Below are positions 1 to 11,570 of a stretch of DNA of 11,570 nucleotides, one piece after another. Every line of letters starts with the position of its first letter. Position 1 is the first letter of the stretch. The notes below the pieces were generated by a model, which saw nothing but the letters and a program-made list of their open reading frames with translations, ran no database searches and was not told the origin of the DNA. Where the stretch lies: assembly GCA_023136205.1 (NCBI GenBank), contig JAGLRQ010000050.1, forward strand, positions 1 through 11,570, in the 5' to 3' direction. The DNA comes from Candidatus Auribacterota bacterium. GTDB taxonomy: Bacteria > Auribacterota > UBA6266. A program made the position numbers and the translations under genes.

Positions 1-872
1 AGAATACGAACCGCGTGTAAACGGACAATATCATTTCCAGGCGCTTTGTCCGGGCCGGGCCAGGATACCTCGCCGCCGCCCGAACGTACCGACGTCAGGT
101 ATTGCTGGACAACATCAGCGGATTTTCCATCTGCTATTATCCTTCCTTTCTCAAGAAGAATAGCCCGCTGACAGAGATTAACGACACTCGGCATATTATG
201 GCTTACAAACAAAACCGTCCTTCCTTCCTTTGCCACATCACTCATCTTTCCCAAACATTTTTTCTGAAATTCGACATCCCCCACTGCCAGTACCTCATCT
301 ACAAGTAAAATTTCCGGCTCCAAATGAGCGGCGACAGAAAAAGCCAAACGCAAATACATGCCGCTGGAATAAAACTTAACAGGGGTATCAATAAATTTTC
401 CTACCTCTGAAAAAGCAACAATCTCATCAAATTTGCTGATCATTTCCCTTTTTCTCATACCTAAAATCGCGCCGTTTAGAAATATATTTTCCCTGCCGGT
501 AAGCTCGGGATGAAAACCCGTTCCCACTTCAAGAAGAGATCCAATCCTTCCGTAAATCCTTCCCCATCCTTCTGTTGGTTCGGTAATACGGGAAAGGACC
601 TTCAACAATGTACTTTTTCCGGCTCCATTATGGCCGATAATACCAACAATTTCACCGCGGCCTACCTCAAAGGAGACTCCTTTTAATGCCCAGATTACCT
701 CATCCATCTCTGCCGCGCCATATGCTTCTCCGCGCAGTAATTTTGCAAACCGCCGAAACGGCGACTGTATCGCGCCTGTTAATGTTTCTCTAAGCGTTTT
801 ATAAGAAGCCTGCCGCGCGCCTATATTATACCGTTTGCCTAAATTATTAACTTTAATAACAATATTACTCAT
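1..872 (-). CDS. wzt: ABC transporter ATP-binding protein of the Wzt/TagH/KpsT polysaccharide-exporter type. The 5' end is complete and the 3' end runs off the left edge (290 codons visible).
   Basis: This ORF is absent from the supplied track because it has no stop in the window. My minus-strand translation from ATG 872-870 stays open to position 3: MSNIVIKVNNLGKRYNIGARQASYKTLRE... It shows Walker A GHNGAGKST (nt 609-635), Q-loop region LLEVGTGFHPELTGREN, ABC signature YSSGM, Walker B EILLVDE and H-loop LFVSHNM. The start lies 3 nt after the wzm stop. Residues after about aa 259 (nt 1-95) continue beyond the nucleotide-binding domain. Confidence 0.93.
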   Translation of the reverse strand, partial: MSNIVIKVNNLGKRYNIGARQASYKTLRETLTGAIQSPFRRFAKLLRGEAYGAAEMDEVIWALKGVSFEVGRGEIVGIIGHNGAGKSTLLKVLSRITEPTEGWGRIYGRIGSLLEVGTGFHPELTGRENIFLNGAILGMRKREMISKFDEIVAFSEVGKFIDTPVKFYSSGMYLRLAFSVAAHLEPEILLVDEVLAVGDVEFQKKCLGKMSDVAKEGRTVLFVSHNMPSVVNLCQRAILLEKGRIIADGKSADVVQQYLTSVRSGGGEVSWPGPDKAPGNDIVRLHAVRI

Positions 873-875
873 AAA

Positions 876-1721
876 TCACACCACATCCGCAAAACTTTTT
901 TCCATCCGTCGAAAATAAAAGACACCGCTAACCAACAATGTAATAGATACAAATGCTGAAACAAAAATAATAGGCCCCGGAGCCGTATTGGTACCGAGAA
1001 GCGCCCAGCGGAATCCCTCAATAACCCCGGCCATCGGATTAATTCCATAAAGAGTGCGCCAGGGTTCTGAAAGAAGACTGCTGGGGTACGCTATGGGTGT
1101 AGCAAACAACCAGGCCTGTATCAGAAAGGGGACAGCAAAACGCACATCACGAAACTGCACATTCATCGCTGTAAGCCACATACCGGCACCTAAACAGGTT
1201 GTTAACGCCAGCAGTAACAAAAATGGCAGCCAAATCACATTGGCAGTCGGCGTAATACCATAAAACAACATCATCCCCAACAACACAAAGAAAGCCAGGA
1301 TAAAGTCAACTGCTCCCGAAATTATTGCTGAAATAGGCAATACCATACGTGGAAAATAAACTTTTCTAACCAGATTGGCACTTGATACCAGCGTGTTTGA
1401 GGACTGCATCAAACCGTTAGCAAAAAAAACCCATGGCACAAGAGCAGCATAACTGAAAATCGGGTAAGGAATACCATCAGACGGAATTTTCGCTAACCGC
1501 CCAAAAAATAAACTAAAAATCACCATTGTGAAAAAAGGTTGTATAATAGCCCAGGCCGCGCCCAAGACCGTCTGTTTATAACGTACCTTTATATTACGCC
1601 AGGTTAGAAAATAAAGAAGCTCGCGGTATCTCCAAACCTCACCCAAATTAATAGACCGCCAACCGTGTGAGGGTTGGATTTCAAGGAACTCTTCTTCATT
1701 CTTCGGCTGGCTGATACTCAT
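876..1721 (-). CDS. wzm: ABC-2 type polysaccharide/teichoic-acid export permease (Wzm/TagG-like)
   Basis: The 281-aa ORF starts at ATG 1721-1719. A cytoplasmic N-terminus (WRYRELLYFLTWRNIKVRYKQTVLGAAWAIIQP, typical ABC-2 permease opening) is followed by about 6 hydrophobic spans. It sits directly upstream of the ATPase gene, separated by a 3-nt gap. Confidence 0.9.
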   Translation of the reverse strand: MSISQPKNEEEFLEIQPSHGWRSINLGEVWRYRELLYFLTWRNIKVRYKQTVLGAAWAIIQPFFTMVIFSLFFGRLAKIPSDGIPYPIFSYAALVPWVFFANGLMQSSNTLVSSANLVRKVYFPRMVLPISAIISGAVDFILAFFVLLGMMLFYGITPTANVIWLPFLLLLALTTCLGAGMWLTAMNVQFRDVRFAVPFLIQAWLFATPIAYPSSLLSEPWRTLYGINPMAGVIEGFRWALLGTNTAPGPIIFVSAFVSITLLVSGVFYFRRMEKSFADVV

Positions 1722-1723
1722 TT

Positions 1724-2446
1724 CTAAAATGTTGCCCTTTTCTTCCTTTTAAGCTTTCTCACCTCTCTCCAGACTCTAAAAAGCTCTTTCAATGTACGCG
1801 GTATATATTTCAGTGAAACAGTGGATTTTCCGGCGGTGCGGGGAAAGTGAGGAACACCTACCTCTATCATGTTGTACCCGTAATAATGCGCTTTTACAAG
1901 AATTTCAGTATTCACAAAAAATTTCTTTGATGTAATATTTATTTTTTCAAAAATCTTCTTGTCAAAAATTTTAAACGCGCAATCAATATCTTTTACATTA
2001 AGGTCAAATACGAATCCGACCAGGGTATTATATCCCCATGATAAAAACCTTCTTAAGAAAGCATCTTTCCTTTTAAGCCTGTATCCTATGATAAGGTCTA
2101 CAACCCCCGTCTTAATAAGCGGAAACATTATATCCAAACTTGAAATATCAAACTGCCTGTCACAATCTGTAAAAAACAGGTACTCATACCGCGCGGCATC
2201 AAACCCATCTTTCAATGATTTGCCATACCCTTCATTTTTCGGATGGCTAATAACCCTCACCTGCTTATATTTATTTTCCAATCTATTAGCAAGTTTTCCG
2301 GTCATATCGGAAGAACCATCATCCACAACTATAACTTCATATTTTTCTTTTTTCTCTTTAAAATACCCCACTATATCACCAACAGCATGGCCGATATTCT
2401 CTTCTTCGTTATAAGCAGGCAAAACTATAGATATTCCTCTGTCCAT
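1724..2446 (-). CDS. Family 2 (GT-A) glycosyltransferase, Dpm1/GtrB-type catalytic domain, soluble (no TM helix)
   Basis: Motifs seen: ISIVLPAYNEEENI, VIVVDDGSSD, DxD-like TDCD and DIDCAFKIF. The longest ORF in the track starts at TTG 2458. The ATG at 2446 has GGAG 6 nt upstream (TTGGAGAAATATATG), so I call 2446. The stop at 1724 lies 2 nt before the wzm start. Confidence 0.88.
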   Translation of the reverse strand: MDRGISIVLPAYNEEENIGHAVGDIVGYFKEKKEKYEVIVVDDGSSDMTGKLANRLENKYKQVRVISHPKNEGYGKSLKDGFDAARYEYLFFTDCDRQFDISSLDIMFPLIKTGVVDLIIGYRLKRKDAFLRRFLSWGYNTLVGFVFDLNVKDIDCAFKIFDKKIFEKINITSKKFFVNTEILVKAHYYGYNMIEVGVPHFPRTAGKSTVSLKYIPRTLKELFRVWREVRKLKRKKRATF

Positions 2447-2579
2447 ATATTTCTCCAATCTAAAAACAGTATTGAGTATTGAGTATTGCGTTAAAAAACT
2501 AAAAACAAATAATACAACACTGATTTTTTTATCTTTTATTTGTGTAAATTCGTACTATCTGTGGTTACTTTCTCTTTTT
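2447..2579 (-). promoter_or_regulatory. Only sizeable intergenic gap inside the operon. It is a candidate internal promoter/attenuator region for the GT2-wzm-wzt sub-operon.
   Basis: The spacer is very AT-rich and holds the heptamer triplet. Each coding-strand copy contains AATACT (4/6 match to TATAAT). An AT-rich inverted repeat ACAAATAA/TTATTTGT (arms 2505-2512 and 2536-2543, 23-nt loop) is followed on the minus strand by TTTTTAGTTTTTT. No strong -35/-10 pair or GC-rich terminator stem is visible. Confidence 0.3.
2468..2488. repeat. Three perfect tandem copies of the heptamer AGTATTG (CAATACT on the coding strand)
   Basis: Read directly: agtattg at 2468-2474, 2475-2481 and 2482-2488. The repeat ends 11 nt upstream of the GGAG Shine-Dalgarno of the GT2 gene. 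Confidence 0.95.
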
Positions 2580-3518
2580 TTATTTCCTGTCCTTTGACAT
2601 ATATTTTATCATAAACGGCAAACCGCAAAGGGCGGGAATGATATACCTCACGGTACACATCAAGCCAACGGCCGCCATTAAATAATCCGGGTAACCATAC
2701 CAGCCAAAAAGAACTATTAACGCTTTATCTCTTGTTCCGATACCGGCAAAAGCAATTGGAATCAGGCCTATAAAAATTGCTATCGGAACCAGCGCGAAGG
2801 TTAGAACAATTTCAGCATCGTTCGAAAAAGCTTTAAAAAAACAAAATATCTGAAATACCTGTATAAACCAGGAAGCTGCCGAAAGAATTGCCGCGAGAAC
2901 CAGCTTAGCCGGATTCTTTTTCATGTTTTCCAGAAAGTTCTGGACTTCCAAAAATACTTTGTCCAGAGCCGCGAACCTCTTTAAAAACTTAAATCTTTTA
3001 AAATCAAAAAAATAAATAAGGGACGGCAAAAACAAAAAAACCAGCCCGACAGCAACAATTGTATGTTTTATTTGTGGAGTAAAATTACTATCAGGGGGAA
3101 GCAATGCTAACCCTGTCAGCATAACCACGCTCAGTCCCGCGACATCAAATATTTTTTCCGCGACAACACTGCTAAAGCCGGCGGGAAGGCCGATTATCCC
3201 TTCTTTTTTAAGGAAAACCGCTTTGCTCATGTCGCCTATCTTAGAAGGAAGAACAACATTTAATGAATTCCCCGCGAAATAAAGCTTAAGCGATGTCTTA
3301 ATCGGTATCCTGACACTGGTTGAAAGCATTACTAAATACCTGTACGATGTAATTAACGCGGACATAACAAAGATTGACATCCCCAGCCAGAACCAGGCAT
3401 GGTTCATGCCTGAAAAGATGTTTGAAAAGGCATCGATATCTATATCAGAATATATAATATAAAGGATAAACGCGGTTATAAGAAAAGTTATAGCAAGACG
3501 GATTTTCTTCCAAGTCAT
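2580..3518 (-). CDS. Integral membrane protein of the LPG_synthase_TM / UPF0104 family (MprF-type flippase-like domain), stand-alone
   Basis: The 312-aa ORF has about 7-8 hydrophobic spans. The N-terminal pattern ITSYRYLVML...NSLNVVLPSKIGDMSKAVFL matches the family hallmark (R-x-x-x-L followed by P-x-[RK]-x-G-[ED]). ATG 3518-3516 overlaps the upstream stop (ATGA). Confidence 0.8.
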   Translation of the reverse strand: MTWKKIRLAITFLITAFILYIIYSDIDIDAFSNIFSGMNHAWFWLGMSIFVMSALITSYRYLVMLSTSVRIPIKTSLKLYFAGNSLNVVLPSKIGDMSKAVFLKKEGIIGLPAGFSSVVAEKIFDVAGLSVVMLTGLALLPPDSNFTPQIKHTIVAVGLVFLFLPSLIYFFDFKRFKFLKRFAALDKVFLEVQNFLENMKKNPAKLVLAAILSAASWFIQVFQIFCFFKAFSNDAEIVLTFALVPIAIFIGLIPIAFAGIGTRDKALIVLFGWYGYPDYLMAAVGLMCTVRYIIPALCGLPFMIKYMSKDRK

Positions 3519-5113
3519 TTTAGTTTCCTAGTAATTTCAACAACTCTTTCCGAGTTAAGCTTATCAAGATACGGGTTAAGATCAATCCACGGCTTCAGGG
3601 CGCCCGTATTAAAACACTCCGACATCGCGATATAAATCGAGACCTTATCGGTTGAAACATACATTCTCTTAACATTTTCATTGCCCAAAAGAGATATCTT
3701 GTCTCTAATCTCTAAACCATCTTCTCCAAGATGTAATGTCCGATTAAAAGAGACCGGTGCCTTATCCTTCCCAATTATAAGAATTCTCTGCAGCAATTTT
3801 CTTATAAATCTGCTAAAAGCCGGGAGCCACCCCAAAAAAAATAAAATTATCCTTAAAAGAGCCTGTTTTGCGGGAGTGGCAAGCTGTCTCTTATAATAAA
3901 ACAGTTCTTTTTCAATCCCAATAACGTCTCCCCTAACCTGGCCTTGAAAACTGTTTTCGGTATCTATTCTGTTTGTCACACAAACTTTTCCCGAATCAAG
4001 TTCGCAAACAATCCCGGTGTCAGTAAAAAGAAGTTTATCGTTCTTAAATAACTTAAAAACTCCTCCCTTGCTGTAGGAACATACAAAATAATAATTCCTT
4101 TTTTTCGCGGCATATAAACAGGAATTAGTAAAATCTTTTTCAATATCGGGCCTTCCCCTTACCGTTATATCCTTATCATTATAATCAAGCCATGCCATCA
4201 AATGGCTGTATGTCATATGTCCGAATATTCTGGAATCCTCAAAATTTGTATCTTTTCCTTCTTTAAGACAACTTAAATATCTTTCTTTAATTTCCAGTGA
4301 TTTTTCACAAACCGAACCGAGCAGTTCAAAACCATGAGGCATAAAAATATAAGTATCTCTGCTGCCGATTTCTCCGCCGCAAGTTCCGTCGGGATAAACA
4401 AAATAATCTAAAAATTCCACGGCTTTTTTCAGGGCTTTTAACAAATCTTCATTTTTTACCTTTTTATAGTACCTCGCGAGAAAATCTATTGTCATAGAAA
4501 GATAGCCGGGATCGCACCCTTCATATTCCTGGAACCAACCCTCTGTGGATTGCCATGAAAGGCATAAATCTATCTTTTCCCCGGCAATATGTTTGTATTT
4601 ATGGACACCGGTAATTTCCCATAATTCATATAACGCCAGAGCGGCAATCGCGTGATGGTTAGAAAGCTTCCCTGACTCCACATTTGAAGCAAGCCAGTTT
4701 CCTCTCCTCTTCAAAAATGTTTCAATTGAATCATCTTTAATGTCCAGGAGCAAATACGATTCTGTAAAAGCATAAAGAGAAAACGAGGCAGCGCCATAAG
4801 CCCTTTCATACGGAAAATAATCGTCACAGGAACCATCCCGATGGGAACTTTTTTCGGCAAATCTTATGCCTGCCAGAATTATCTCTTTAATCTTCTCATT
4901 CCCAAAAAATGGATTATCTCTGAATTCAGTCTTATATACAAGTGCAAGAGGCAAAACAAATTCCTGGCTCATTCCACATGGAAAATCAGCTGTTCTATAA
5001 TGCCAGTACTCTCTGTCAAAGCAGCCGTATGTCGGGCTTGTCATATCAGTATCAACAAGTGTAAGAATCCTCGGAATCTGCTTTAATGCAAGTTTAAGAT
5101 ATAAATCTTTCAT
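3515..5113 (-). CDS. Hypothetical protein, 532 aa. It is predicted cytoplasmic or membrane-associated, possibly an alpha/alpha-toroid plus beta-sandwich polysaccharide-modifying enzyme. The family is not recognised.
   Basis: Long clean ORF with ATG at 5113-5111 and no signal peptide. A G-x-C-(acidic/Gly) motif occurs four times: TYGCFD, DGSCDD, YEGCDP and DGTCGGE. The N-terminal two thirds look helix-rich and the C-terminal third looks beta-rich. A basic-flanked hydrophobic segment ALLRIILFFLGWLPAFSRFIRKLLQR is present. Confidence refers to it being a real CDS, not to its function. Confidence 0.9.
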   Translation of the reverse strand: MKDLYLKLALKQIPRILTLVDTDMTSPTYGCFDREYWHYRTADFPCGMSQEFVLPLALVYKTEFRDNPFFGNEKIKEIILAGIRFAEKSSHRDGSCDDYFPYERAYGAASFSLYAFTESYLLLDIKDDSIETFLKRRGNWLASNVESGKLSNHHAIAALALYELWEITGVHKYKHIAGEKIDLCLSWQSTEGWFQEYEGCDPGYLSMTIDFLARYYKKVKNEDLLKALKKAVEFLDYFVYPDGTCGGEIGSRDTYIFMPHGFELLGSVCEKSLEIKERYLSCLKEGKDTNFEDSRIFGHMTYSHLMAWLDYNDKDITVRGRPDIEKDFTNSCLYAAKKRNYYFVCSYSKGGVFKLFKNDKLLFTDTGIVCELDSGKVCVTNRIDTENSFQGQVRGDVIGIEKELFYYKRQLATPAKQALLRIILFFLGWLPAFSRFIRKLLQRILIIGKDKAPVSFNRTLHLGEDGLEIRDKISLLGNENVKRMYVSTDKVSIYIAMSECFNTGALKPWIDLNPYLDKLNSERVVEITRKLK

Positions 5114-5129
5114 AAGTAAAATACGATTT

Positions 5130-5987
5130 CTATTCCTTGTGCATCATAACTATAAGATCAGCAAGAAGCCCTATCGCGAAAATAAGGACTGCCGTTGAAA
5201 GCAGAATAATATCGGACTCCTGTATTGTATGAGTTATCATAAAATCTAAAATTGATTTAATAACACCCGCGCAAAAAACAATCAATGATAAGGGGAGAAA
5301 AAACCTCAACGGATTAAAATACATTAGTGTCCTTACCACAAGAGAGAAATAATTATAACTATCTCCCAGAGGATGGAACGTGGATTTTCCAACCCTTGGA
5401 TAATAATCTATTGAAACATACCTGACTTTATAACCCCTGGATAACATAACAAGTGTAATAGTGCTAACCCATGAATGTGTCACCGGAAGATACTTTTTAT
5501 ATTTCAATACCAGAGATTTTTTAACAACCCTCAATCCTGAGTTGAGGTCAGGTATCTTTGCTTTCACGAGATAAGACGCAAGCGCTTTTATAAACAACTT
5601 GGCAGATGTCCTTAAAATTTTAAGTGTTCCCTTCTCTTTCTTCCTCGCGCCAACAACCATATCATTCTCTTGCATTTCTTTCAGAAGCCCGGGAATGGCA
5701 TTCGCGGGATAGGTACAGTCACCATCAATCATTACTACCAGCTCCGTGGCTGATTCTTCAACTCCGGTAGTCCTCGCGGCGCCAATCCCGCGATTAACCG
5801 AGTGCCGTACAACACGCGCACCCAAAGATTTCGCTATCTGTCCTGAATTATCTGTTGACCCATCGTCCACAACCAAAATTTCATAACCGTACTGCTGGTT
5901 TTGCATCGCCTTCTTTACATCTTCTATCACCTTAGGCAAGGCGCTTTTTTCATTATAAACCGGTATCAATATTGTTACCTTTTTCAT
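5130..5987 (-). CDS. GtrB/ArnC-like polyprenyl-phosphate glycosyltransferase (GT2 catalytic domain plus two C-terminal TM helices)
   Basis: Motifs seen: VTILIPVYNEK, ILVVDDGSTDNS, DxD IDGDC and PDLNSGLRVV. The C-terminus carries two hydrophobic helices (LRFFLPLSLIVFCAGVIKSIL and IILLSTAVLIFAIGLLADLIVMM). ATG 5987-5985 overlaps the stop of the GT-C gene (ATGA), and GAGGAG lies just upstream. Confidence 0.88.
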   Translation of the reverse strand: MKKVTILIPVYNEKSALPKVIEDVKKAMQNQQYGYEILVVDDGSTDNSGQIAKSLGARVVRHSVNRGIGAARTTGVEESATELVVMIDGDCTYPANAIPGLLKEMQENDMVVGARKKEKGTLKILRTSAKLFIKALASYLVKAKIPDLNSGLRVVKKSLVLKYKKYLPVTHSWVSTITLVMLSRGYKVRYVSIDYYPRVGKSTFHPLGDSYNYFSLVVRTLMYFNPLRFFLPLSLIVFCAGVIKSILDFMITHTIQESDIILLSTAVLIFAIGLLADLIVMMHKE

Positions 5988-7699
5988 CTTCTCCTCTTTA
6001 TTTTTCTCTTTATCAATTTAAATACCTGGATAGTATACCCTGTTTTATCTCTCAAAAAAACCTCATTATCAAGAAAAGGCCCACCGGTAAGAACCTGGCT
6101 ATTCAGTGAATACTTCCTTGTTTTATCTTTATATGGATTAAATTCGGCTATAAGTTCCGAATTAGATTCCAGTTGTTCAAAAAATTCATCGTGTTCACGT
6201 TTTAGCACACTCTTTGTTACCACAACATATTCTATCTCCTCATCAATAAGGAAATTGTAATCAAAAGGTATCTGCGGCCTTGCAAAAAGAAACTCGTTTT
6301 CTCCAGATGGTTTATCTTTAAGAAAAAAAAGTTTGTATCCCCCCTTCTCATCTACTAACGTCTTGAGGGCCTTAATCCTGATTTTTTTTGACTCCGGCAG
6401 ATTTTCTTTTTCGACAATCTTAATCTTTTCTTCAAGCTGGCCTGAATCAGGCATCAGTTTCGGGCCAAAAAAGGTATGGTCCAGCGCTATTTTTGAACTC
6501 TTGGCAATATTAACGTTTATCCAAGCCTTAGCATCCAAACGTGTATCTCCCGCGACAAATATATAGTTTGAGTAAGCTGTCTTAGCAAAGGTGGAAATCG
6601 ATATTATAAAACAAATAACAGCATACCAGAATTTTCTTGTCCTGACATGTGGAACTACACGGGAAACTTTATGAAGTAAATAAGCAGCAAAATAACATAG
6701 TACAGGGATAAGTGGAAGAACATATCTCGCGTGAGGCTGGCTGAAAAAGATTAACACCATATATTCGGTTACAATGTAAAAAAACAGAACCAGAAAAAAT
6801 TTCTTCCTCTCAGTCAACGCTGCTATAATCCCGAAAAACGAACATATAAGCAGCGGCATTGAAAACCCATTTAAAAGCGAATAGAATAAATGATGGAACC
6901 ATTCCTGTGAACCCATTTGAGAAGACTGATCCGCAAAACCGGCAAGAAAAGTTTTAAAATCTATAATTGAAAAAGGATTTAGCAGCACGTAAACACCGAA
7001 TACCACAAGAAATGAGTACAACAACTTTTTATCATCGGCCGACACAATCCCTTTCCTTTCGGAGCTTACGAAATGTGAAACCGCGAAAGGAACCACCAAA
7101 AGCGCGGAGTTATATTTAAAAGCTACTGCTATACCAAGGAACACTCCGGCAAGTATATAATTCTTCAATCGGCAATCCTTTAAAATTTTTATTATGTAAT
7201 ACAAAGATACCAGCATCATGGAAATTCTTGGCATATCAGCATAAATGTAATGGCTGTCCCTGACAAAAAGAAAATTCACGGCAAGGAAAAAGGAAGCCCC
7301 CAGGCCAACATTGTTACTGCCGGAAGCTTCCTTTGAAAGCTTATAAAGTATCCATACGGAAAAAACCGACGGTATAACACCAAGAAAGAAACGCCCGATA
7401 AGGTAAAAGTTCGTTGGGTTGGCAAGAAAAATCGTTCTGAATTCTTCTGCCGAATGAACAATACCAATTAATTTTCCAACGAGAAAAGATATCCCATAAA
7501 TAAAAAACAGTACATAAGAGGTAAGCGGCGGAAGCAAAAACCAGTGCGGATTCAAATCTCCCATCCCGTAAGATAAAGCTTTGTTAACAACTATGGGTTC
7601 ATCAGCATGAAGCATTTCAGGAAGCCCATAATCAAGGCCCCAGATTCTAAGAACAACCGCCAAAAATAGTATGAGTAACAAAAACCCTTTTTTGTCCAT
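5984..7699 (-). CDS. GT-C fold glycosyltransferase, PMT_2 / GT39 / ArnT-like (polyprenyl-phosphate-sugar dependent), with a C-terminal soluble domain of about 188 aa
   Basis: The 571-aa ORF opens with a TM helix, then GLDYGLPEMLHADEP (an acidic DE motif in the first extracytoplasmic loop, typical of PMT_2/ArnT-type enzymes). About 10 or more hydrophobic spans run to about aa 383. A hydrophilic Lys/Glu-rich tail follows. Confidence 0.85.
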   Translation of the reverse strand: MDKKGFLLLILFLAVVLRIWGLDYGLPEMLHADEPIVVNKALSYGMGDLNPHWFLLPPLTSYVLFFIYGISFLVGKLIGIVHSAEEFRTIFLANPTNFYLIGRFFLGVIPSVFSVWILYKLSKEASGSNNVGLGASFFLAVNFLFVRDSHYIYADMPRISMMLVSLYYIIKILKDCRLKNYILAGVFLGIAVAFKYNSALLVVPFAVSHFVSSERKGIVSADDKKLLYSFLVVFGVYVLLNPFSIIDFKTFLAGFADQSSQMGSQEWFHHLFYSLLNGFSMPLLICSFFGIIAALTERKKFFLVLFFYIVTEYMVLIFFSQPHARYVLPLIPVLCYFAAYLLHKVSRVVPHVRTRKFWYAVICFIISISTFAKTAYSNYIFVAGDTRLDAKAWINVNIAKSSKIALDHTFFGPKLMPDSGQLEEKIKIVEKENLPESKKIRIKALKTLVDEKGGYKLFFLKDKPSGENEFLFARPQIPFDYNFLIDEEIEYVVVTKSVLKREHDEFFEQLESNSELIAEFNPYKDKTRKYSLNSQVLTGGPFLDNEVFLRDKTGYTIQVFKLIKRKIKRRR

Positions 7700-7710
7700 T
7701 TACCAACCTT

Positions 7711-8421
7711 TCAAAAGTTTCTGTGAACCTTTCTAATCTTAAATAAATCAAAAAACATGGAAACGGAATCTTTGACAGGGTGTACCTTTGAATCAGCAGA
7801 ATTATACCATTTCACAGGAACTTCAACCATTTTAAACCCGAGTTTTTTCGCAAGATATAATATTTCCACATCAAAAACAAAATTTTCAAGGCGCTGGAGC
7901 TCAAATATTTTTCTCGCGGCCGCGCTGGTGAAGAGCTTAAAACCACACTGAGTATCTTTTACACCATCAACAACAATCAATCTTACAAGAAGATTAAAAA
8001 TACGTCCCATATTTTCCCTGATAAAATTCTGATGAATTTCGATCCTGGACCCTTCAACTCTTCTTGAGCCGATAACAACATCAAATCCTTTATTCACATA
8101 CTCAATCATATTAGAAATGGTTTCCATGGGGGTTGACATATCCGCATCGCTGAAAAGCAAAATGTCTCCTGTTCCGTTAAGCATACCCTTTTTTACAGAA
8201 TAACCTTTTCCCCTGTTCGTGCCATTTTTAAAAAGTTTTATTCTGGAATTTTTTTCAATAAATTCAGCCACAACAGATATAGTATTGTCCTTACTGCCGT
8301 CATCAACAATAATTAATTCATAATCTTTTCCAAGTGTGTCAAGACAGGATTGAGTTTTTATAAGAGTGTCTCTTATCCTTTTTCCCTCATTGTACGCAGG
8401 AATTATCACAGAAATCTTCAT
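7711..8421 (-). CDS. Family 2 glycosyltransferase, ALG5/Dpm1-like (polyprenyl-phosphate beta-glucosyl/mannosyl-transferase type), soluble
   Basis: Motifs seen: ISVIIPAYNEGKRI, LIIVDDGSKDNT, DxD FSDADM and DTQCGFKLF (characteristic of ALG5-like dolichyl/polyprenyl-phosphate glucosyltransferases). No TM helix is present. ATG 8421-8419 overlaps the upstream stop (ATGA). Confidence 0.88.
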   Translation of the reverse strand: MKISVIIPAYNEGKRIRDTLIKTQSCLDTLGKDYELIIVDDGSKDNTISVVAEFIEKNSRIKLFKNGTNRGKGYSVKKGMLNGTGDILLFSDADMSTPMETISNMIEYVNKGFDVVIGSRRVEGSRIEIHQNFIRENMGRIFNLLVRLIVVDGVKDTQCGFKLFTSAAARKIFELQRLENFVFDVEILYLAKKLGFKMVEVPVKWYNSADSKVHPVKDSVSMFFDLFKIRKVHRNF

Positions 8422-10163
8422 TGTTTCTCATGCCCTTTTTGTAATATCCCGGCTATCCTCCCGGATGCCAATCCATCCATACCATCTAAACAATAATTAA
8501 CCGCTGACTCCCAATTTGCCATGTGGCCTCTGTATGAACCATTAAGGATACCCTCTATGGAGTTTTTAAGCTTTTCGCTCTCTGTCCCATCGTAAAACAC
8601 TCCTAAATCTTTGTACCGTTTCATACAGCGATTATACGTTAAAATCACCGGTTTGCCATATGCCAATCCATCTATGGTAAATGTCGACGCGCAAACAATT
8701 AAAAAATCCACCCCTTTTGCTAAGGCTAAAGGATCATAATTTCTTAGAACTCTAACTTTGTCAGAATTTAGATTTTTAACTAAATCTCTGACAAATGGCT
8801 CATTATAATCTCCCGGATGCAATTTTATTATTATTTGAATATCGGGAAAACTGCTTGCTGTAACTATTACCTGCTTTATTTCCTGCCAGAGGGTGTTTTC
8901 CAAAACATTTCTTCTTTTCTTTAACGGACAGGTAGCTATTAAACCGACAGGCCGGGAAACATTGAAACCCAAATCCCCGCAGATTTTAGCTTTTATGGAT
9001 TCTGATGACACGCGAATATATTTATCATATTTTGAACAGCCTGTAACGATAATTTTGTTCTCCTCCATCCCCCAATTTATCAAGAGCTCTTTCTGGCTTT
9101 TACCCCAAACAAGTATATAATCCGCTGTTAACGGTACAATCCCATTTTTATGGAACGGCTCACTGTGACAATTTACATAAGACATACATTGATATTTTTT
9201 CGCGGTTTGAACTAATATATTCGTAAAAACTCCGCTGTCTTCATCAACTAACAACGATTTCATTTTAAATTTTCCAAACAAGGAATTAATTTGAGCGGCC
9301 CTCATAAGAACAAGCATCAGGTCTTTTTGCCAGATAACAGCAAGGAACTTTTTAACATAGGGAGTAAAATTCACCCCGGAAACACTTTTATCAGGCAATA
9401 AACTCTCCAATTTCCGCATAAAGTCATTTTTTACGTCCGATACAGATTCTCTGTGTTTCCCTGAAACTTTAAAATCGGAAAACAACCTTAAACTTACACG
9501 ATTCCCAATCAAGTAAAAAACAAGCCTCTCAGGAAAATCCTCTCTCATGAAAATAACATTCTCTTTTTTAAAATAGCTCATAAGCGTCGGGATTTTTTCT
9601 AAATCAGAACATATCAAAATATTATCAGCCTTCGATTGATTTACAATATTCGAAAATCTTCTTATTAAATCCAAAATAAACCGTATTGGATATAATTTAA
9701 GCTTTTTGGGATTACTGCTATTTGATTTTTTCGCGGGCAGATCCTCAAAATACCTGATAGAAATGTCCGGGCTGACAAAATCAGACAGGAACATACTTAA
9801 GAATGGATACTTTGAATTACTTTCAACCGAAGCTTTTGCCACCCATATTTCAGAAGGTGATTCTTTTTCTATTATTTTCTTCGCAACATGTATTTTTTGA
9901 TAAAAGTTGGAAAGAAAATTAAAAATCTTTTTTCTATAAGCATGTAAGATATCTATATCCTGATAGACAAAATTACTATTCATGCCATCCTGCTTGAGCC
10001 AGGAATCTAATTCAAGATATACCTGATCAGCAATTCTGTAGGAATCGTCCTCCACAATGTAGTTGTCTACATTCGGATAACCATCCCTGCAGAAACTGAT
10101 AACTTTATCAAACTTTGAAGGATCAACTTTTCTTTCTTCTTCTATTATTGCTATTTTGCTCAT
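8418..10163 (-). CDS. 581-aa putative GT-B-fold transferase resembling the TagF (CDP-glycerol glycerophosphotransferase) / KpsS-KpsC capsule-synthesis families, with an unassigned N-terminal region of about 170 aa
   Basis: The C-terminal half shows the pattern shared by these families: NCHSEPFHKNG...ADYILVWGKSQKELL...IIVTGCSKYD, then IIIKLHPGD (nt 8814-8825 encode KLHP) and DFLIVCASTFTIDGLAYGKPVI. ATG is at 10163-10161. The protein has no TM helix or signal peptide. The CDS call is confident. The family call is moderate, about 0.45. Confidence 0.85.
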   Translation of the reverse strand: MSKIAIIEEERKVDPSKFDKVISFCRDGYPNVDNYIVEDDSYRIADQVYLELDSWLKQDGMNSNFVYQDIDILHAYRKKIFNFLSNFYQKIHVAKKIIEKESPSEIWVAKASVESNSKYPFLSMFLSDFVSPDISIRYFEDLPAKKSNSSNPKKLKLYPIRFILDLIRRFSNIVNQSKADNILICSDLEKIPTLMSYFKKENVIFMREDFPERLVFYLIGNRVSLRLFSDFKVSGKHRESVSDVKNDFMRKLESLLPDKSVSGVNFTPYVKKFLAVIWQKDLMLVLMRAAQINSLFGKFKMKSLLVDEDSGVFTNILVQTAKKYQCMSYVNCHSEPFHKNGIVPLTADYILVWGKSQKELLINWGMEENKIIVTGCSKYDKYIRVSSESIKAKICGDLGFNVSRPVGLIATCPLKKRRNVLENTLWQEIKQVIVTASSFPDIQIIIKLHPGDYNEPFVRDLVKNLNSDKVRVLRNYDPLALAKGVDFLIVCASTFTIDGLAYGKPVILTYNRCMKRYKDLGVFYDGTESEKLKNSIEGILNGSYRGHMANWESAVNYCLDGMDGLASGRIAGILQKGHEKQ

Positions 10164-10188
10164 ATTTTTTGTCCGGCGAAATTCAGAT

Positions 10189-11403
10189 TTAGCCTGTTTC
10201 CACTTTTATCAAGGAAACAGCTTTTTTAGCGGCGGCAATAGATTTTCTTCGGGTATCGGCCACAGTTATTACAAATCCTGTTCTTTTAGTGTGATTGTTA
10301 ATTTCACCTACAATTCTTCCCTGTCCAATATTAATGCCTATCTTCTTCACATTCGAAAGTTTTCTCGCTTTAGCTAAACCTGAAATTTTGATTATTCTGC
10401 CTTCATCTGAAAAAATATACCGTTGTGTAACATATTTTTGATACACGGGAACCAGCTTTTTAAAATCAGGTTTTATCCCTAAGGACATATTAATAACCGC
10501 TTTGACTATATTCACTCCCGTGGAAAGAGGAATCTCATCCGTAGCAAACCATCCGCCGCTTAAACGCGCCGCAATCTCTATAACTTTAGGGCCGTCTTTT
10601 GTATAAACAATATCGCCCTTCAAAGAACCCCTTTTTATCCCTAGTGATTTTGCCGCTTTTATCAACAACTCATCAACTTTTAGCTGCTGCCGCTTGCTCA
10701 AACAAGCAGGCAAATCCCCGCCATTCTCAATAATATAAGGGCTGAACTTTTCCAGATATTCGTAATTCCTGTTTGATAAACCCGGGGTGATAAAACAATC
10801 GTCATAGATAATTGATTCGGAACTAATCTGTAAACCATTTAGAAATTTTTCTATCATAACCTGTTTTGTGGGAGATTCCCCCTTACTTTTTTTAAAGGCC
10901 CACTCTAAATTTACACCCCCGGTTAATCTTAGAACACCCCTCGCGCCACGGCTGTCTACCGGTTTTAATACAACAGGATATCTATATTTTTTAATAAATT
11001 CTTTGATTTCCTTAACATTTTTCACTCCGCTGAATTTTGGAATAGACACTCCGTCTTTAGCAAATCTTCTTTTCATCAATAACTTATTCGATGCCAATTT
11101 TGCTGTTTTGATGGAATTTCCGGGGAGTCCAAGGGCATTCGCGACCGAAGCCACGGTTAATGGGACATCAGACGCAACCGTCATAACACCGTCTATTTTT
11201 CTTTTCCTGTTATACTTGATGGCAAATTGAACCATGTTTTCCACATCGTAAGTACTTATTACAGCAGATTCGTCAGCATATTTAAATCCAGGCGCTTTTT
11301 GCTGACGGTCAGCTGCAATAACAAATAACCCCATTTTACGGGCCAGTTTTATCCCGGGAACCTGTTCTACGCCGGCGCCTATCATTATTATAGTTTTGCC
11401 CAC
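10189..11403 (-). CDS. ATP-grasp superfamily carboxylate-amine/thiol ligase (PurK/PurT / L-amino-acid-ligase-like)
   Basis: The 404-aa ORF has an N-terminal Rossmann-like strand KTIIMIGAG, an ATP-binding Lys in YPVVLKPVDSRGARGV with a flexible Gly-rich loop, the hinge MIEKFL, and the Mg/ATP site KGDIV...VIEIAARLSGG. GTG start at 11403-11401 with AGAGG 5 nt upstream. The internal ATG (M7) would delete the first beta-strand. Confidence 0.88.
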   Translation of the reverse strand: MGKTIIMIGAGVEQVPGIKLARKMGLFVIAADRQQKAPGFKYADESAVISTYDVENMVQFAIKYNRKRKIDGVMTVASDVPLTVASVANALGLPGNSIKTAKLASNKLLMKRRFAKDGVSIPKFSGVKNVKEIKEFIKKYRYPVVLKPVDSRGARGVLRLTGGVNLEWAFKKSKGESPTKQVMIEKFLNGLQISSESIIYDDCFITPGLSNRNYEYLEKFSPYIIENGGDLPACLSKRQQLKVDELLIKAAKSLGIKRGSLKGDIVYTKDGPKVIEIAARLSGGWFATDEIPLSTGVNIVKAVINMSLGIKPDFKKLVPVYQKYVTQRYIFSDEGRIIKISGLAKARKLSNVKKIGINIGQGRIVGEINNHTKRTGFVITVADTRRKSIAAAKKAVSLIKVETG

Positions 11404-11446
11404 TTTAACCTCTATACCTTGTAACCCGGCAAAATCACGTCACGAG

Positions 11447-11475
11447 AGCATATAGTCTCTTACCCCTAATAACAA
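11447..11475 (-). promoter_or_regulatory. Candidate sigma70-like promoter for the operon
   Basis: The minus strand reads TTGTTA (11475-11470), a 17-nt spacer, then TATGCT (11452-11447). Each hexamer is a 4/6 match to consensus. The element lies about 44 nt upstream of the GTG start. Pattern match only. Confidence 0.25.
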
Positions 11476-11495
11476 GAACTCACTTACCAACATCT

Positions 11496-11570
11496 TTATC
11501 TCGCGTACAATACCGTGTCCATTATCGTGGCAGTATGATGCCCCAGATAGAATTCGTAATCGGGATTAAG
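11496..11570 (-). CDS. Possible 3' end (24 codons plus TAA) of an upstream minus-strand gene entering from the right edge. Product unknown.
   Basis: Minus-strand frame from 11570 reads LNPDYEFYLGHHTATIMDTVLYAR then TAA at 11498-11496. The composition is coding-like rather than AT-rich like the 2447-2579 spacer. It is ambiguous because a second minus frame is open for 15 codons and a plus-strand ATGATG at 11535 is also open to the edge. Confidence 0.3.
   Translation of the reverse strand, partial: LNPDYEFYLGHHTATIMDTVLYAR

Follow-up and report, generated by a model that had tools for sequence, protein, structure and literature searches.

What is the role of a conserved protein without a family name whose gene lies between those of a putative lipid-linked sugar synthase and a flippase-like membrane protein? 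The question is raised by a stretch of 11,570 nucleotides (the window, i.e., the whole piece of DNA analyzed here) from a Candidatus Auribacterota bacterium (GTDB lineage Bacteria; Auribacterota; UBA6266; GenBank assembly GCA_023136205.1, contig JAGLRQ010000050.1, positions 1 to 11,570 of the forward strand). Within it, the gene for a protein of 532 amino acids (aa), hereafter the target, follows a glycosyltransferase gene of family GT2 and precedes a gene of the Pfam family PF03706. The target is one member of a large, unannotated family for which there is a confident structural model and whose genes keep a tightly conserved place between those of a lipid-sugar synthase and an MprF-like flippase. 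The reading that we prefer, and to which we give about an even chance, is that the target is a cytoplasmic, peripherally membrane-docked, carbohydrate-active protein, which as a fourth component converts a polyprenyl-phosphate-linked sugar before it is flipped. Here we present the family, its conserved residues, predicted fold and gene neighbourhood, together with the alternatives and a comparison with known systems.

Family and annotation

A word-index search recovered at least 2,381 homologues of the target at E<=1e-3, with full-length relatives at 42-60% identity in many phyla; the best of these, 99% identical, is from a metagenome-assembled genome (MAG) of Candidatus Aureabacteria (Auribacterota). 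In an exhaustive profile search, 2,438 clusters (50% identity) came up, including 1,154 with E<=1e-30; almost all members are 520-580 aa in length. No fewer than 590 GTDB species genomes encode a member. The family is mostly bacterial, its carriers including many filamentous cyanobacteria, Desulfobacterota, Myxococcota, Sumerlaeota, Omnitrophota and other groups. A preliminary description of the window, made from the sequence alone, had called the protein an orphan. Regarding homologues this was wrong; regarding curated annotation it was right, as neither the single sequence nor a profile gave a match above threshold in Pfam, NCBIfam or PDB, and the protein is, as had also been stated, not assignable to a named family. 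An unrelated, well-characterized family, the kind of result that had been named as telling against a role in glycan modification, did not turn up either.

The Pfam model Pec_lyase (PF09492) reached 18.8 bits (cut-off 22) over residues 208-244 (model positions 44-80 of 292), which corresponds to one hairpin, and the NCBIfam pectate-lyase equivalog TIGR02474 reached 15.6 bits (cut-off 189.8). The top match of the PDB profile search was 6lja (E=0.43). Among 42 family members tested, the weak one-hairpin match to Pec_lyase was present in 31; GH88, GH127 (3/42) and Alginate_lyase (2/42, best E=0.076) also yielded weak matches, and the Hepar_II_III model yielded none. Sequence thresholds for membership of the heparinase II/III and alginate-lyase families (PL12, PL15, PL17 and PL21), which had been brought into play early on, and of the pectate-lyase family were missed. 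Pectate lyase family PL10 in particular was considered and rejected, the whole-protein score being below the cut-off and about 37 of the 292 model positions being covered. Some relatives at NCBI (P0008 and other entries) are labelled 'pectate lyase' on the basis of the single-hairpin PF09492 match; this label is likely a propagating over-annotation. No description of the family, or of a module with a toroid component, was found in the literature.

Conserved residues

Column frequencies were determined for 247 members with 27-99% identity to the window protein. About 25 positions are conserved at 95% or more, mostly Asp, Glu, Tyr, Trp, Arg, Asn and Gly (G30, D33, W37, Q50, G94, P101, E103, N152, E191, G192, W193, E196, Y197, G199, D201, G203, Y204, P241, G247, S251, R252, G261, K349, G351 and G367). 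The near-invariant residues sit in loops before the first helix of successive hairpins; in toroid enzymes, such loops are the usual active-site face. In the signature Q188-x2-E-G-W-F-x-E-Y-x-G-x-D-x-G-Y204, E191, G192, W193, E196, Y197, G199, D201, G203 and Y204 are each conserved at 97% or more, and this block is a candidate sugar-binding or catalytic loop; together with D33, E103, N152 and R252 it makes up the signature of the family. Among the residues of potential catalytic interest, N152 is conserved at 98%, H153 at 83% (Gln in 14%), Y197 at 97%, Y204 at 98% and H38 at 81%. Because about 25 near-invariant positions persist in hairpin loops down to 27% identity, an enzyme-like role is suggested.

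The preliminary description had drawn attention to four Cys-bearing motifs, TYGCFD (aa 28-33), DGSCDD (93-98), YEGCDP (197-202) and DGTCGGE (242-248). All four are present, and the loose pattern G-x(0-1)-C-x(0-2)-[DE] occurs four times in the target as against 0.6 times expected (20,000 shuffles, P=0.004). As a feature of the family the fourfold Cys motif does not hold, since Cys occurs in 90% of members at position 31, 55% at 96 (Phe 28%), 35% at 200 (Ala 50%) and 9% at 245 (Tyr 48%), the loops being kept through other residues. A lack of Cys conservation had been named in advance as telling against the first interpretation, and this outcome was obtained. The periodicity after helix pairs that had been seen in these motifs is borne out, although it resides in acidic, aromatic and Gly residues and not in Cys. 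Residues 73-96 and 222-245 are true repeats of one unit within the protein (hhalign probability 94%, E=1.4e-7); the similarity between the remaining pairs of hairpin units was not significant in hhalign.

Predicted structure

A full-length AlphaFold2 model was built with a 42-sequence alignment (pLDDT, the predicted local distance difference test, 92.3; pTM, the predicted template modelling score, 0.93), and a second model covers the toroid only (pLDDT 93.4). An alpha/alpha toroid followed by a beta-sandwich had been guessed from the sequence, correctly according to the full-length model (Table 1), and the helix-like and beta-like stretches quoted in support of the guess were found where they had been placed.

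When the full-length model was compared with the PDB using Foldseek, two-domain polysaccharide lyases ranked first, followed by GH127. The matches were chondroitinase 9o3q, PL33, PL8 xanthan and chondroitin AC lyases and GAGases, and further PL15 and PL17 alginate lyases, PL12, exoHep, HepC and PL35-type enzymes; the lyase matches had E-values of 9e-9 to 1e-5, TM-scores of 0.45-0.56 and 8-13% identity. The nearest solved folds (chondroitin, xanthan, alginate and heparin lyases) are of the classes named in advance. The toroid-only model gave AGE-family 2-epimerases as the best matches (TMq 0.60-0.71; cellobiose 2-epimerase 0.71; GlcNAc 2-epimerase E=2.8e-5), followed by GH88, GH127, GH76 and one PL (E ~1e-4 to 1e-5); the identity to the AGE, GH88 and GH127 toroids was 10-14%. 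The matches of the toroid-only model were confined to carbohydrate-active six-hairpin enzymes, and over both models the closest folds had 8-15% identity. As modelled, the target combines a six-hairpin toroid of the carbohydrate-active kind with domains arranged as in lyases, and no specific family is assignable to it.

Cellular location

Neither a signal peptide, as noted before, nor a transmembrane segment was found in the target, which has one borderline hydrophobic segment only. P0187 (802 aa) and P0191 (787 aa) are natural fusions with a C-terminal class-I S-adenosylmethionine (SAM) methyltransferase (Methyltransf_23/11). Because of these fusions and of the lack of a signal peptide or transmembrane segment, the target is predicted to be cytoplasmic.

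A helical hairpin is inserted in the beta-sandwich at residues 414-447. Family-wide, its hydrophobic positions alternate with basic ones and it is essentially free of acidic residues; positions 421, 429, 438 and 443 are Lys or Arg in 78-91% and positions 449-451 in 54-71% of the members. The hydrophobic, basic-flanked segment noted earlier at aa 418-443 as a possible membrane dock corresponds to this family-conserved cationic amphipathic hairpin, which is consistent with such docking. Through the hairpin the protein probably docks on the membrane; with an Arg halfway along its first helix, the hairpin is more likely to bind at the interface or to a partner than to span the membrane.

Gene neighbourhood across loci

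The order GT2 with C-terminal transmembrane helices, target, PF03706 recurs in Auribacterota, Omnitrophota, Cyanobacteria, Desulfobacterota, Verrucomicrobiota, Sumerlaeota, bacterium HR37 and a MAG labelled Nanoarchaeota. Considering three genes on either side of the target in 84 loci, a PF03706 flippase-like gene was found in 42, a GT2 gene in 43, a large polytopic membrane protein in 47 and a methyltransferase in 11, with at least one of the first three in 68. A 4-nt overlap of the target and flippase genes is shared by 13 loci of several phyla among the first 81, and also by L082/L083. The intact reading frame, the 16-nt gap to the upstream GT2 gene and the ATGA overlap with the flippase gene had all been read correctly from the window, and the functional link proposed on that basis is supported by the gene order and the 4-nt overlap conserved in many phyla, as well as by the co-occurrence with flippase-like and glycosyltransferase genes.

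Regarding the flippase-like partner, the PF03706 protein of the window had 11 homologues at E<=1e-10 in the word-index search (28-62% identity). Across phyla, identity is 42-46% for the target and 28-35% for the few detectable PF03706 relatives; the partner evolves much faster than the target, and the small number of matches may in part reflect the word-index method applied to a low-complexity membrane protein. No fusions of target and flippase were found among the top 150 family representatives or among the 11 homologues of the PF03706 protein.

Methyltransferases are the commonest other same-strand neighbours (15/82). Adjacent examples are L084:7218-7973, L034:9642-10460 and L082:9297-9944, and the order methyltransferase, target is found especially in Myxococcota and Bradymonadales. 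The target family, PF03706 and the methyltransferases are linked pairwise, fusions of PF03706 with methyltransferases having been described in the PplT paper.

The membrane-protein neighbours form recurring clusters, two of which are PMT_2/GT-C-like and occur in other phyla too. A third, cluster 0, consists of cross-phylum polytopic membrane proteins of 529-598 aa with about 8-12 hydrophobic segments, which stand beside the module in 14 loci (L086:5543-7129, L023:14372-16099, L026:12467-14107, L005:4842-6635, L040:15380-17134 and nine more). These proteins gave no Pfam match even at E<=1 and no relationship to the PMT_2 GT-C protein of the window by hhalign; candidates for their role are a divergent GT-C, a polymerase or ligase, or some further component.

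The ABC transporter genes Wzm and Wzt were found near the target in Auribacterota loci only. UDP-sugar dehydrogenases were found near the target in only two independent loci (87 loci searched); the idea of a uronate substrate was set aside on this count, and the uronate lyase or C5-epimerase role contemplated earlier finds no support in the context. In L082/L083 (P0081, from the MAG labelled Nanoarchaeota), a 688-aa membrane protein, the target, PF03706, a methyltransferase, two PMT_2 genes and FkbH/ACP/ACPS genes occur together. These neighbours look bacterial, and mis-binning or lateral transfer is possible.

Proposed function and alternatives

In the preferred reading, the GT2 enzyme would attach a sugar to polyprenyl phosphate on the inner side of the membrane. 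The target, kept at the inner leaflet through its amphipathic hairpin, would bind the sugar head group in an acidic and aromatic toroid pocket (D33, E103, N152, E191, W193, E196, Y197, D201, Y204 and R252) and convert it by cofactor-independent acid/base chemistry, e.g., epimerization or another rearrangement. The translationally coupled, MprF-like PplT flippase would move the product outward, and a GT-C enzyme would pass the sugar on to a surface glycan; some lineages may have a further cytoplasmic modification, added by a SAM methyltransferase that is fused to the target or encoded beside it.

Several observations weigh against this course of events. In about 16 of the 84 loci the partner genes are all missing from the three genes on either side of the target, and about 30 loci are without GT2 and PF03706 within 10 kb. 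The candidate His residues H153 and H38 are not invariant. AGE-type epimerases require a free reducing end, which a glycosyl phosphate does not have, and lyase or C5-epimerase chemistry requires a uronate, UDP-sugar dehydrogenases being rare near the target. The more specific claim that the target founds a new class of cofactor-independent enzymes, which convert a polyprenyl-phosphate-linked monosaccharide on the cytoplasmic side of the membrane (epimerization, change of ring form or rearrangement) and hand it to an MprF-like flippase in a widespread four-component route that puts sugars lacking a nucleotide-activated precursor on surface glycans, is put forward tentatively, as less likely than not.

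The target might instead be a non-catalytic loading subunit, the toroid binding the sugar in the manner of a lectin, the hairpin docking on the PplT protein and the whole delivering the lipid-linked sugar to the channel. The translational coupling to the flippase gene in many phyla would fit such a role, as would the lack of a recognizable catalytic motif of a known family and, by analogy, the cooperation of the synthase and flippase domains of MprF even when they are expressed separately (PplT paper). We nevertheless regard it as unlikely: the density of near-invariant D33, E103, E191, E196, D201, R252 and K349 is more typical of catalysis, the target is far better conserved than its flippase partner, and many loci have the target but no PF03706 gene next to it.

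A true polysaccharide lyase or glycoside hydrolase, which would trim or proof-read the ABC-exported glycan or recycle mis-made lipid-linked oligosaccharide, is still less probable. It would account for the best full-length structural matches (PL8, PL33, PL35-type, PL15, PL17, PL12 and GH127), for the weak Pfam matches given above and for the presence of Wzm and Wzt in the window. N152-[H/Q]153, followed some 50 residues on by the invariant Y197 and Y204, presumably resembles the Asn-His...Tyr arrangement of toroid lyases. However, H153 is replaced by Gln in a part of the family, every sequence match is sub-threshold and confined to one hairpin, and the target is predicted to be cytoplasmic, whereas such lyases are normally secreted. 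The conserved partners are the GT2 with transmembrane helices, PF03706 and GT-C, not the Auribacterota-specific Wzm/Wzt, and the scarcity of UDP-sugar dehydrogenases also counts against a polymer lyase.

It is very improbable that the target is a toroid of the terpene-cyclase or prenyltransferase kind, acting on the polyprenyl carrier rather than on the sugar. We take the loops of the form Q/H-x-x-[DE]-G-[STW]-[CFY], together with W37, W193, F194, Y197 and Y204, to recall the repeats of prenyltransferase beta-subunits or the QW type; D93-G-S-C-D97-D98 is loosely like DxDD, and the Pec_lyase model is in the same six-hairpin clan. The DxDD register is missed, though, as position 95 is Ser or Thr, D97 is conserved at 80% and D98 alternates with Glu; neither model has a terpene cyclase or a prenyltransferase in its best 50 structural matches, and Pfam gave no match to Prenyltrans or SQHop_cyclase.

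A Zn- or Cys-dependent enzyme, LanC-like (Cys-Cys-His zinc ligands) or with a GH127-like Cys nucleophile, to which the four Cys loops of the target and the structural matches to GH127 had pointed, is effectively refuted for the family because Cys is poorly conserved, and no LanC-like protein is among the top 50 matches of either model.

The window and its source contig

The window is a single minus-strand gene array in the order ATP-grasp, Epimerase_2-like, GT2, PMT_2 GT-C, GT2 with two C-terminal transmembrane helices, target, PF03706, GT2, Wzm, Wzt (Table 1). No Rfam families or tRNAs were found in it, and a promoter and terminator scan gave no excess over shuffles.

Table 1. Features of the window, target gene and parts of its product first (-, minus strand)
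Feature	Position	Strand	Basis and remarks
Target gene, 532-aa protein	3515..5113	-	Intact reading frame, ATG start; member of a large unnamed family (toroid + beta-sandwich)
ATGA stop/start overlap of target and flippase-like genes	3515..3518	-	Read from sequence; translational coupling
N-terminal (alpha/alpha)6 toroid, ~aa 1-315	4169..5113	-	DSSP of models; ~13 helices up to residue ~310
Signature Q188 to Y204	4502..4552	-	Column frequencies, 247 members
C-terminal beta-sandwich, ~aa 320-532	3518..4156	-	Strands 324-531 in AlphaFold2 model; conserved K349-G-G351, D365, G367
Cationic amphipathic helical hairpin, aa 414-447, inserted in beta-sandwich	3773..3874	-	Helices 414-427 and 431-447, pLDDT 74-86
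PF03706 (LPG_synthase_TM) / TIGR00374 MprF-like 'PplT' flippase-only protein, 312 aa	2580..3518	-	Pfam E=3e-40, NCBIfam E=3e-20; transmembrane scan, at least 6 segments
GT2 with two C-terminal transmembrane helices, DPM1/GtrB/AglJ/ArnC-type	5130..5987	-	Glycos_transf_2 E=1.8e-30; transmembrane helices 229-247, 260-278
GT-C fold membrane glycosyltransferase (PMT_2/PMT)	5984..7699	-	PMT_2 E=2.7e-14, PMT E=5.9e-8; at least 8 hydrophobic segments
Further GT2	1724-2458	-	Profile matches
Wzm ABC-2 permease	876-1721	-	Profile matches
Partial Wzt ABC ATPase, Walker A GHNGAGKST	1-875	-	Downstream of Wzm permease
581-aa protein	8418-10163	-	C-terminal half weakly Epimerase_2 / 'surface carbohydrate biosynthesis' / BFO_1060-type; N-terminal ~330 aa without assignment
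ATP-grasp L-amino-acid-ligase-like enzyme (LAL_C2)	10189-11403	-	Precedes the 581-aa protein

The GT2 protein upstream of the target is a putative polyprenyl-phosphate sugar synthase by sequence; the closest NCBIfam models were AglJ (the top likeness), dolichyl-phosphate hexose transferase, PgfS, ArnC and PpgS, all below their equivalog cut-offs. The PF03706 protein is a flippase candidate, and the GT-C protein is the predicted extracytoplasmic user of the lipid-linked sugar. What the module decorates is probably the product of an ABC-transporter-dependent glycan pathway (Wzm/Wzt). The LAL_C2 ATP-grasp enzyme and the 581-aa Epimerase_2-like protein suggest an amino-acid-modified sugar or glycan at the locus.

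The source locus is a large surface-glycan locus. On the source contig, the complete Wzt ATPase has 440 aa, which leaves room for an added glycan-binding part at the C-terminus, like that of Wzt proteins recognizing capped chains. Past the low-coordinate end of the window (L088:13959-20832) there are genes for an SDR (short-chain dehydrogenase/reductase) epimerase or dehydratase, an ALGX-domain protein, an HldE-like PfkB plus cytidylyl/adenylyltransferase, an SIS (GmhA-like) isomerase, a radical SAM/SPASM enzyme and split transketolase genes, a set that suggests a glycan based on heptose or another unusual sugar. Two Methyltransf_21 genes lie past the opposite end of the window.

Significance

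Extracytoplasmic decoration with lipid-linked monosaccharides drives antigenic diversity and envelope properties. To our knowledge, very few enzymes edit a sugar on its lipid carrier: ArnD, DprE1/E2 and one SDR epimerase. The target probably represents an extra step in bacterial surface-sugar decoration that has not been described before. If the preferred reading is true, it would explain how some bacteria, including cyanobacteria, install sugars without a nucleotide donor, would assign a defined polyprenyl-linked cargo to the MprF-like flippase-only proteins and would add a tool for glycoengineering. If the more specific claim of a new enzyme class is also true, the target would stand for a new family of carbohydrate-active enzymes with carriers in at least 590 species, many filamentous cyanobacteria among them. 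The analysis also corrects the spreading mis-annotation of relatives as 'pectate lyase'.

Comparison with known systems

Regarding enzymes of similar fold, the toroid plus beta-sandwich lyases (PL8, PL33, PL15/PL17, PL12 and exoHep) share the two-domain architecture and the domain order with the target. They differ from it in sequence (8-13% identity, no significant profile match), in being secreted, and in lacking the extra amphipathic hairpin in the sandwich; the target is moreover without a uronate-pathway context, and its candidate His is not invariant. The AGE 2-epimerases and isomerases (GlcNAc and cellobiose 2-epimerases, YihS) are the best likeness of the toroid alone, but these are single-domain, soluble proteins acting on free reducing sugars, have an invariant catalytic His pair (H38 and H153 of the target are conserved at 81% and 83%, respectively) and share 10-14% identity and no sequence match with the target, which has the beta-sandwich in addition. 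GH127 enzymes use a Cys nucleophile and a Cys3-Glu zinc site; this Cys/Zn site is absent from the target family.

Regarding operons, the PF03706/UPF0104 ('PplT') family corresponds to MprF's flippase domain and is found on its own or in fusions with GT-A, GT-B, methyltransferase and other domains. The hexSDF operon of C. difficile and the gpgSDF operon of P. aeruginosa are experimentally supported synthase-deacetylase-flippase operons with the flippases HexF and GpgF. They resemble the window in combining, in the same order, a glycosyltransferase, a cytoplasmic head-group modifier and an MprF-like flippase-only protein, the target taking the 'D' position and being coupled to 'F'. Their modifier, however, is a deacetylase acting on a GlcNAc-lipid, whereas the target is a toroid/sandwich protein; a polysaccharide-deacetylase-type middle gene was rejected as an explanation of the target, with no deacetylase match and a different fold, so that the operon logic alone is common to both. 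The lipid in hexSDF and gpgSDF is a phosphatidylglycerol or diradylglycerol glycolipid made by a GT4 or MGDG-synthase-like enzyme, as opposed to the polyprenyl-phosphate-type GT2 found here, and no GT-C enzyme follows, whereas one is present in the neighbourhood of the target.

Three-component systems of synthase, flippase and GT-C enzyme decorate glycans outside the cytoplasm, e.g., GtrB/GtrA/Gtr*, CsbB/GtcA/YfhO and the pentofuranose systems (Kelly et al. 2024, PMC11127046). As in these, a GtrB/DPM1-type GT2 with C-terminal transmembrane helices, a flippase and a GT-C enzyme are found together in the window, beside an ABC-transporter-dependent glycan locus; the flippase there is of the GtrA/SMR or MATE type and here MprF-like PF03706, which makes the window a variant. 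In the C. youngae O2 system, an auxiliary cytoplasmic epimerase of the SDR type acts on undecaprenyl-phosphate (undP)-ribofuranose before export, an undP-sugar epimerase which the authors called otherwise unprecedented in O-polysaccharide side-chain systems (PMC11127046). That auxiliary enzyme is an SDR and a serotype-specific add-on, whereas the target is a toroid plus beta-sandwich protein without a cofactor-binding motif, from a family conserved across many phyla.

In archaea, UPF0104 genes adjoin AglD-like GT2 and PMT/STT3-like GT-C genes (Makarova et al. 2015, PMC5898192). This triad is alike in its Dol-P-hexose-type GT2, its PF03706 protein (sometimes fused to the GT2) and its GT-C-like enzyme; the archaeal neighbourhood as described there is without a toroid/sandwich component, and the target family is mostly bacterial. 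The window is thus the known triad with an MprF-like flippase, together with a fourth conserved component at the 'modifier' position.

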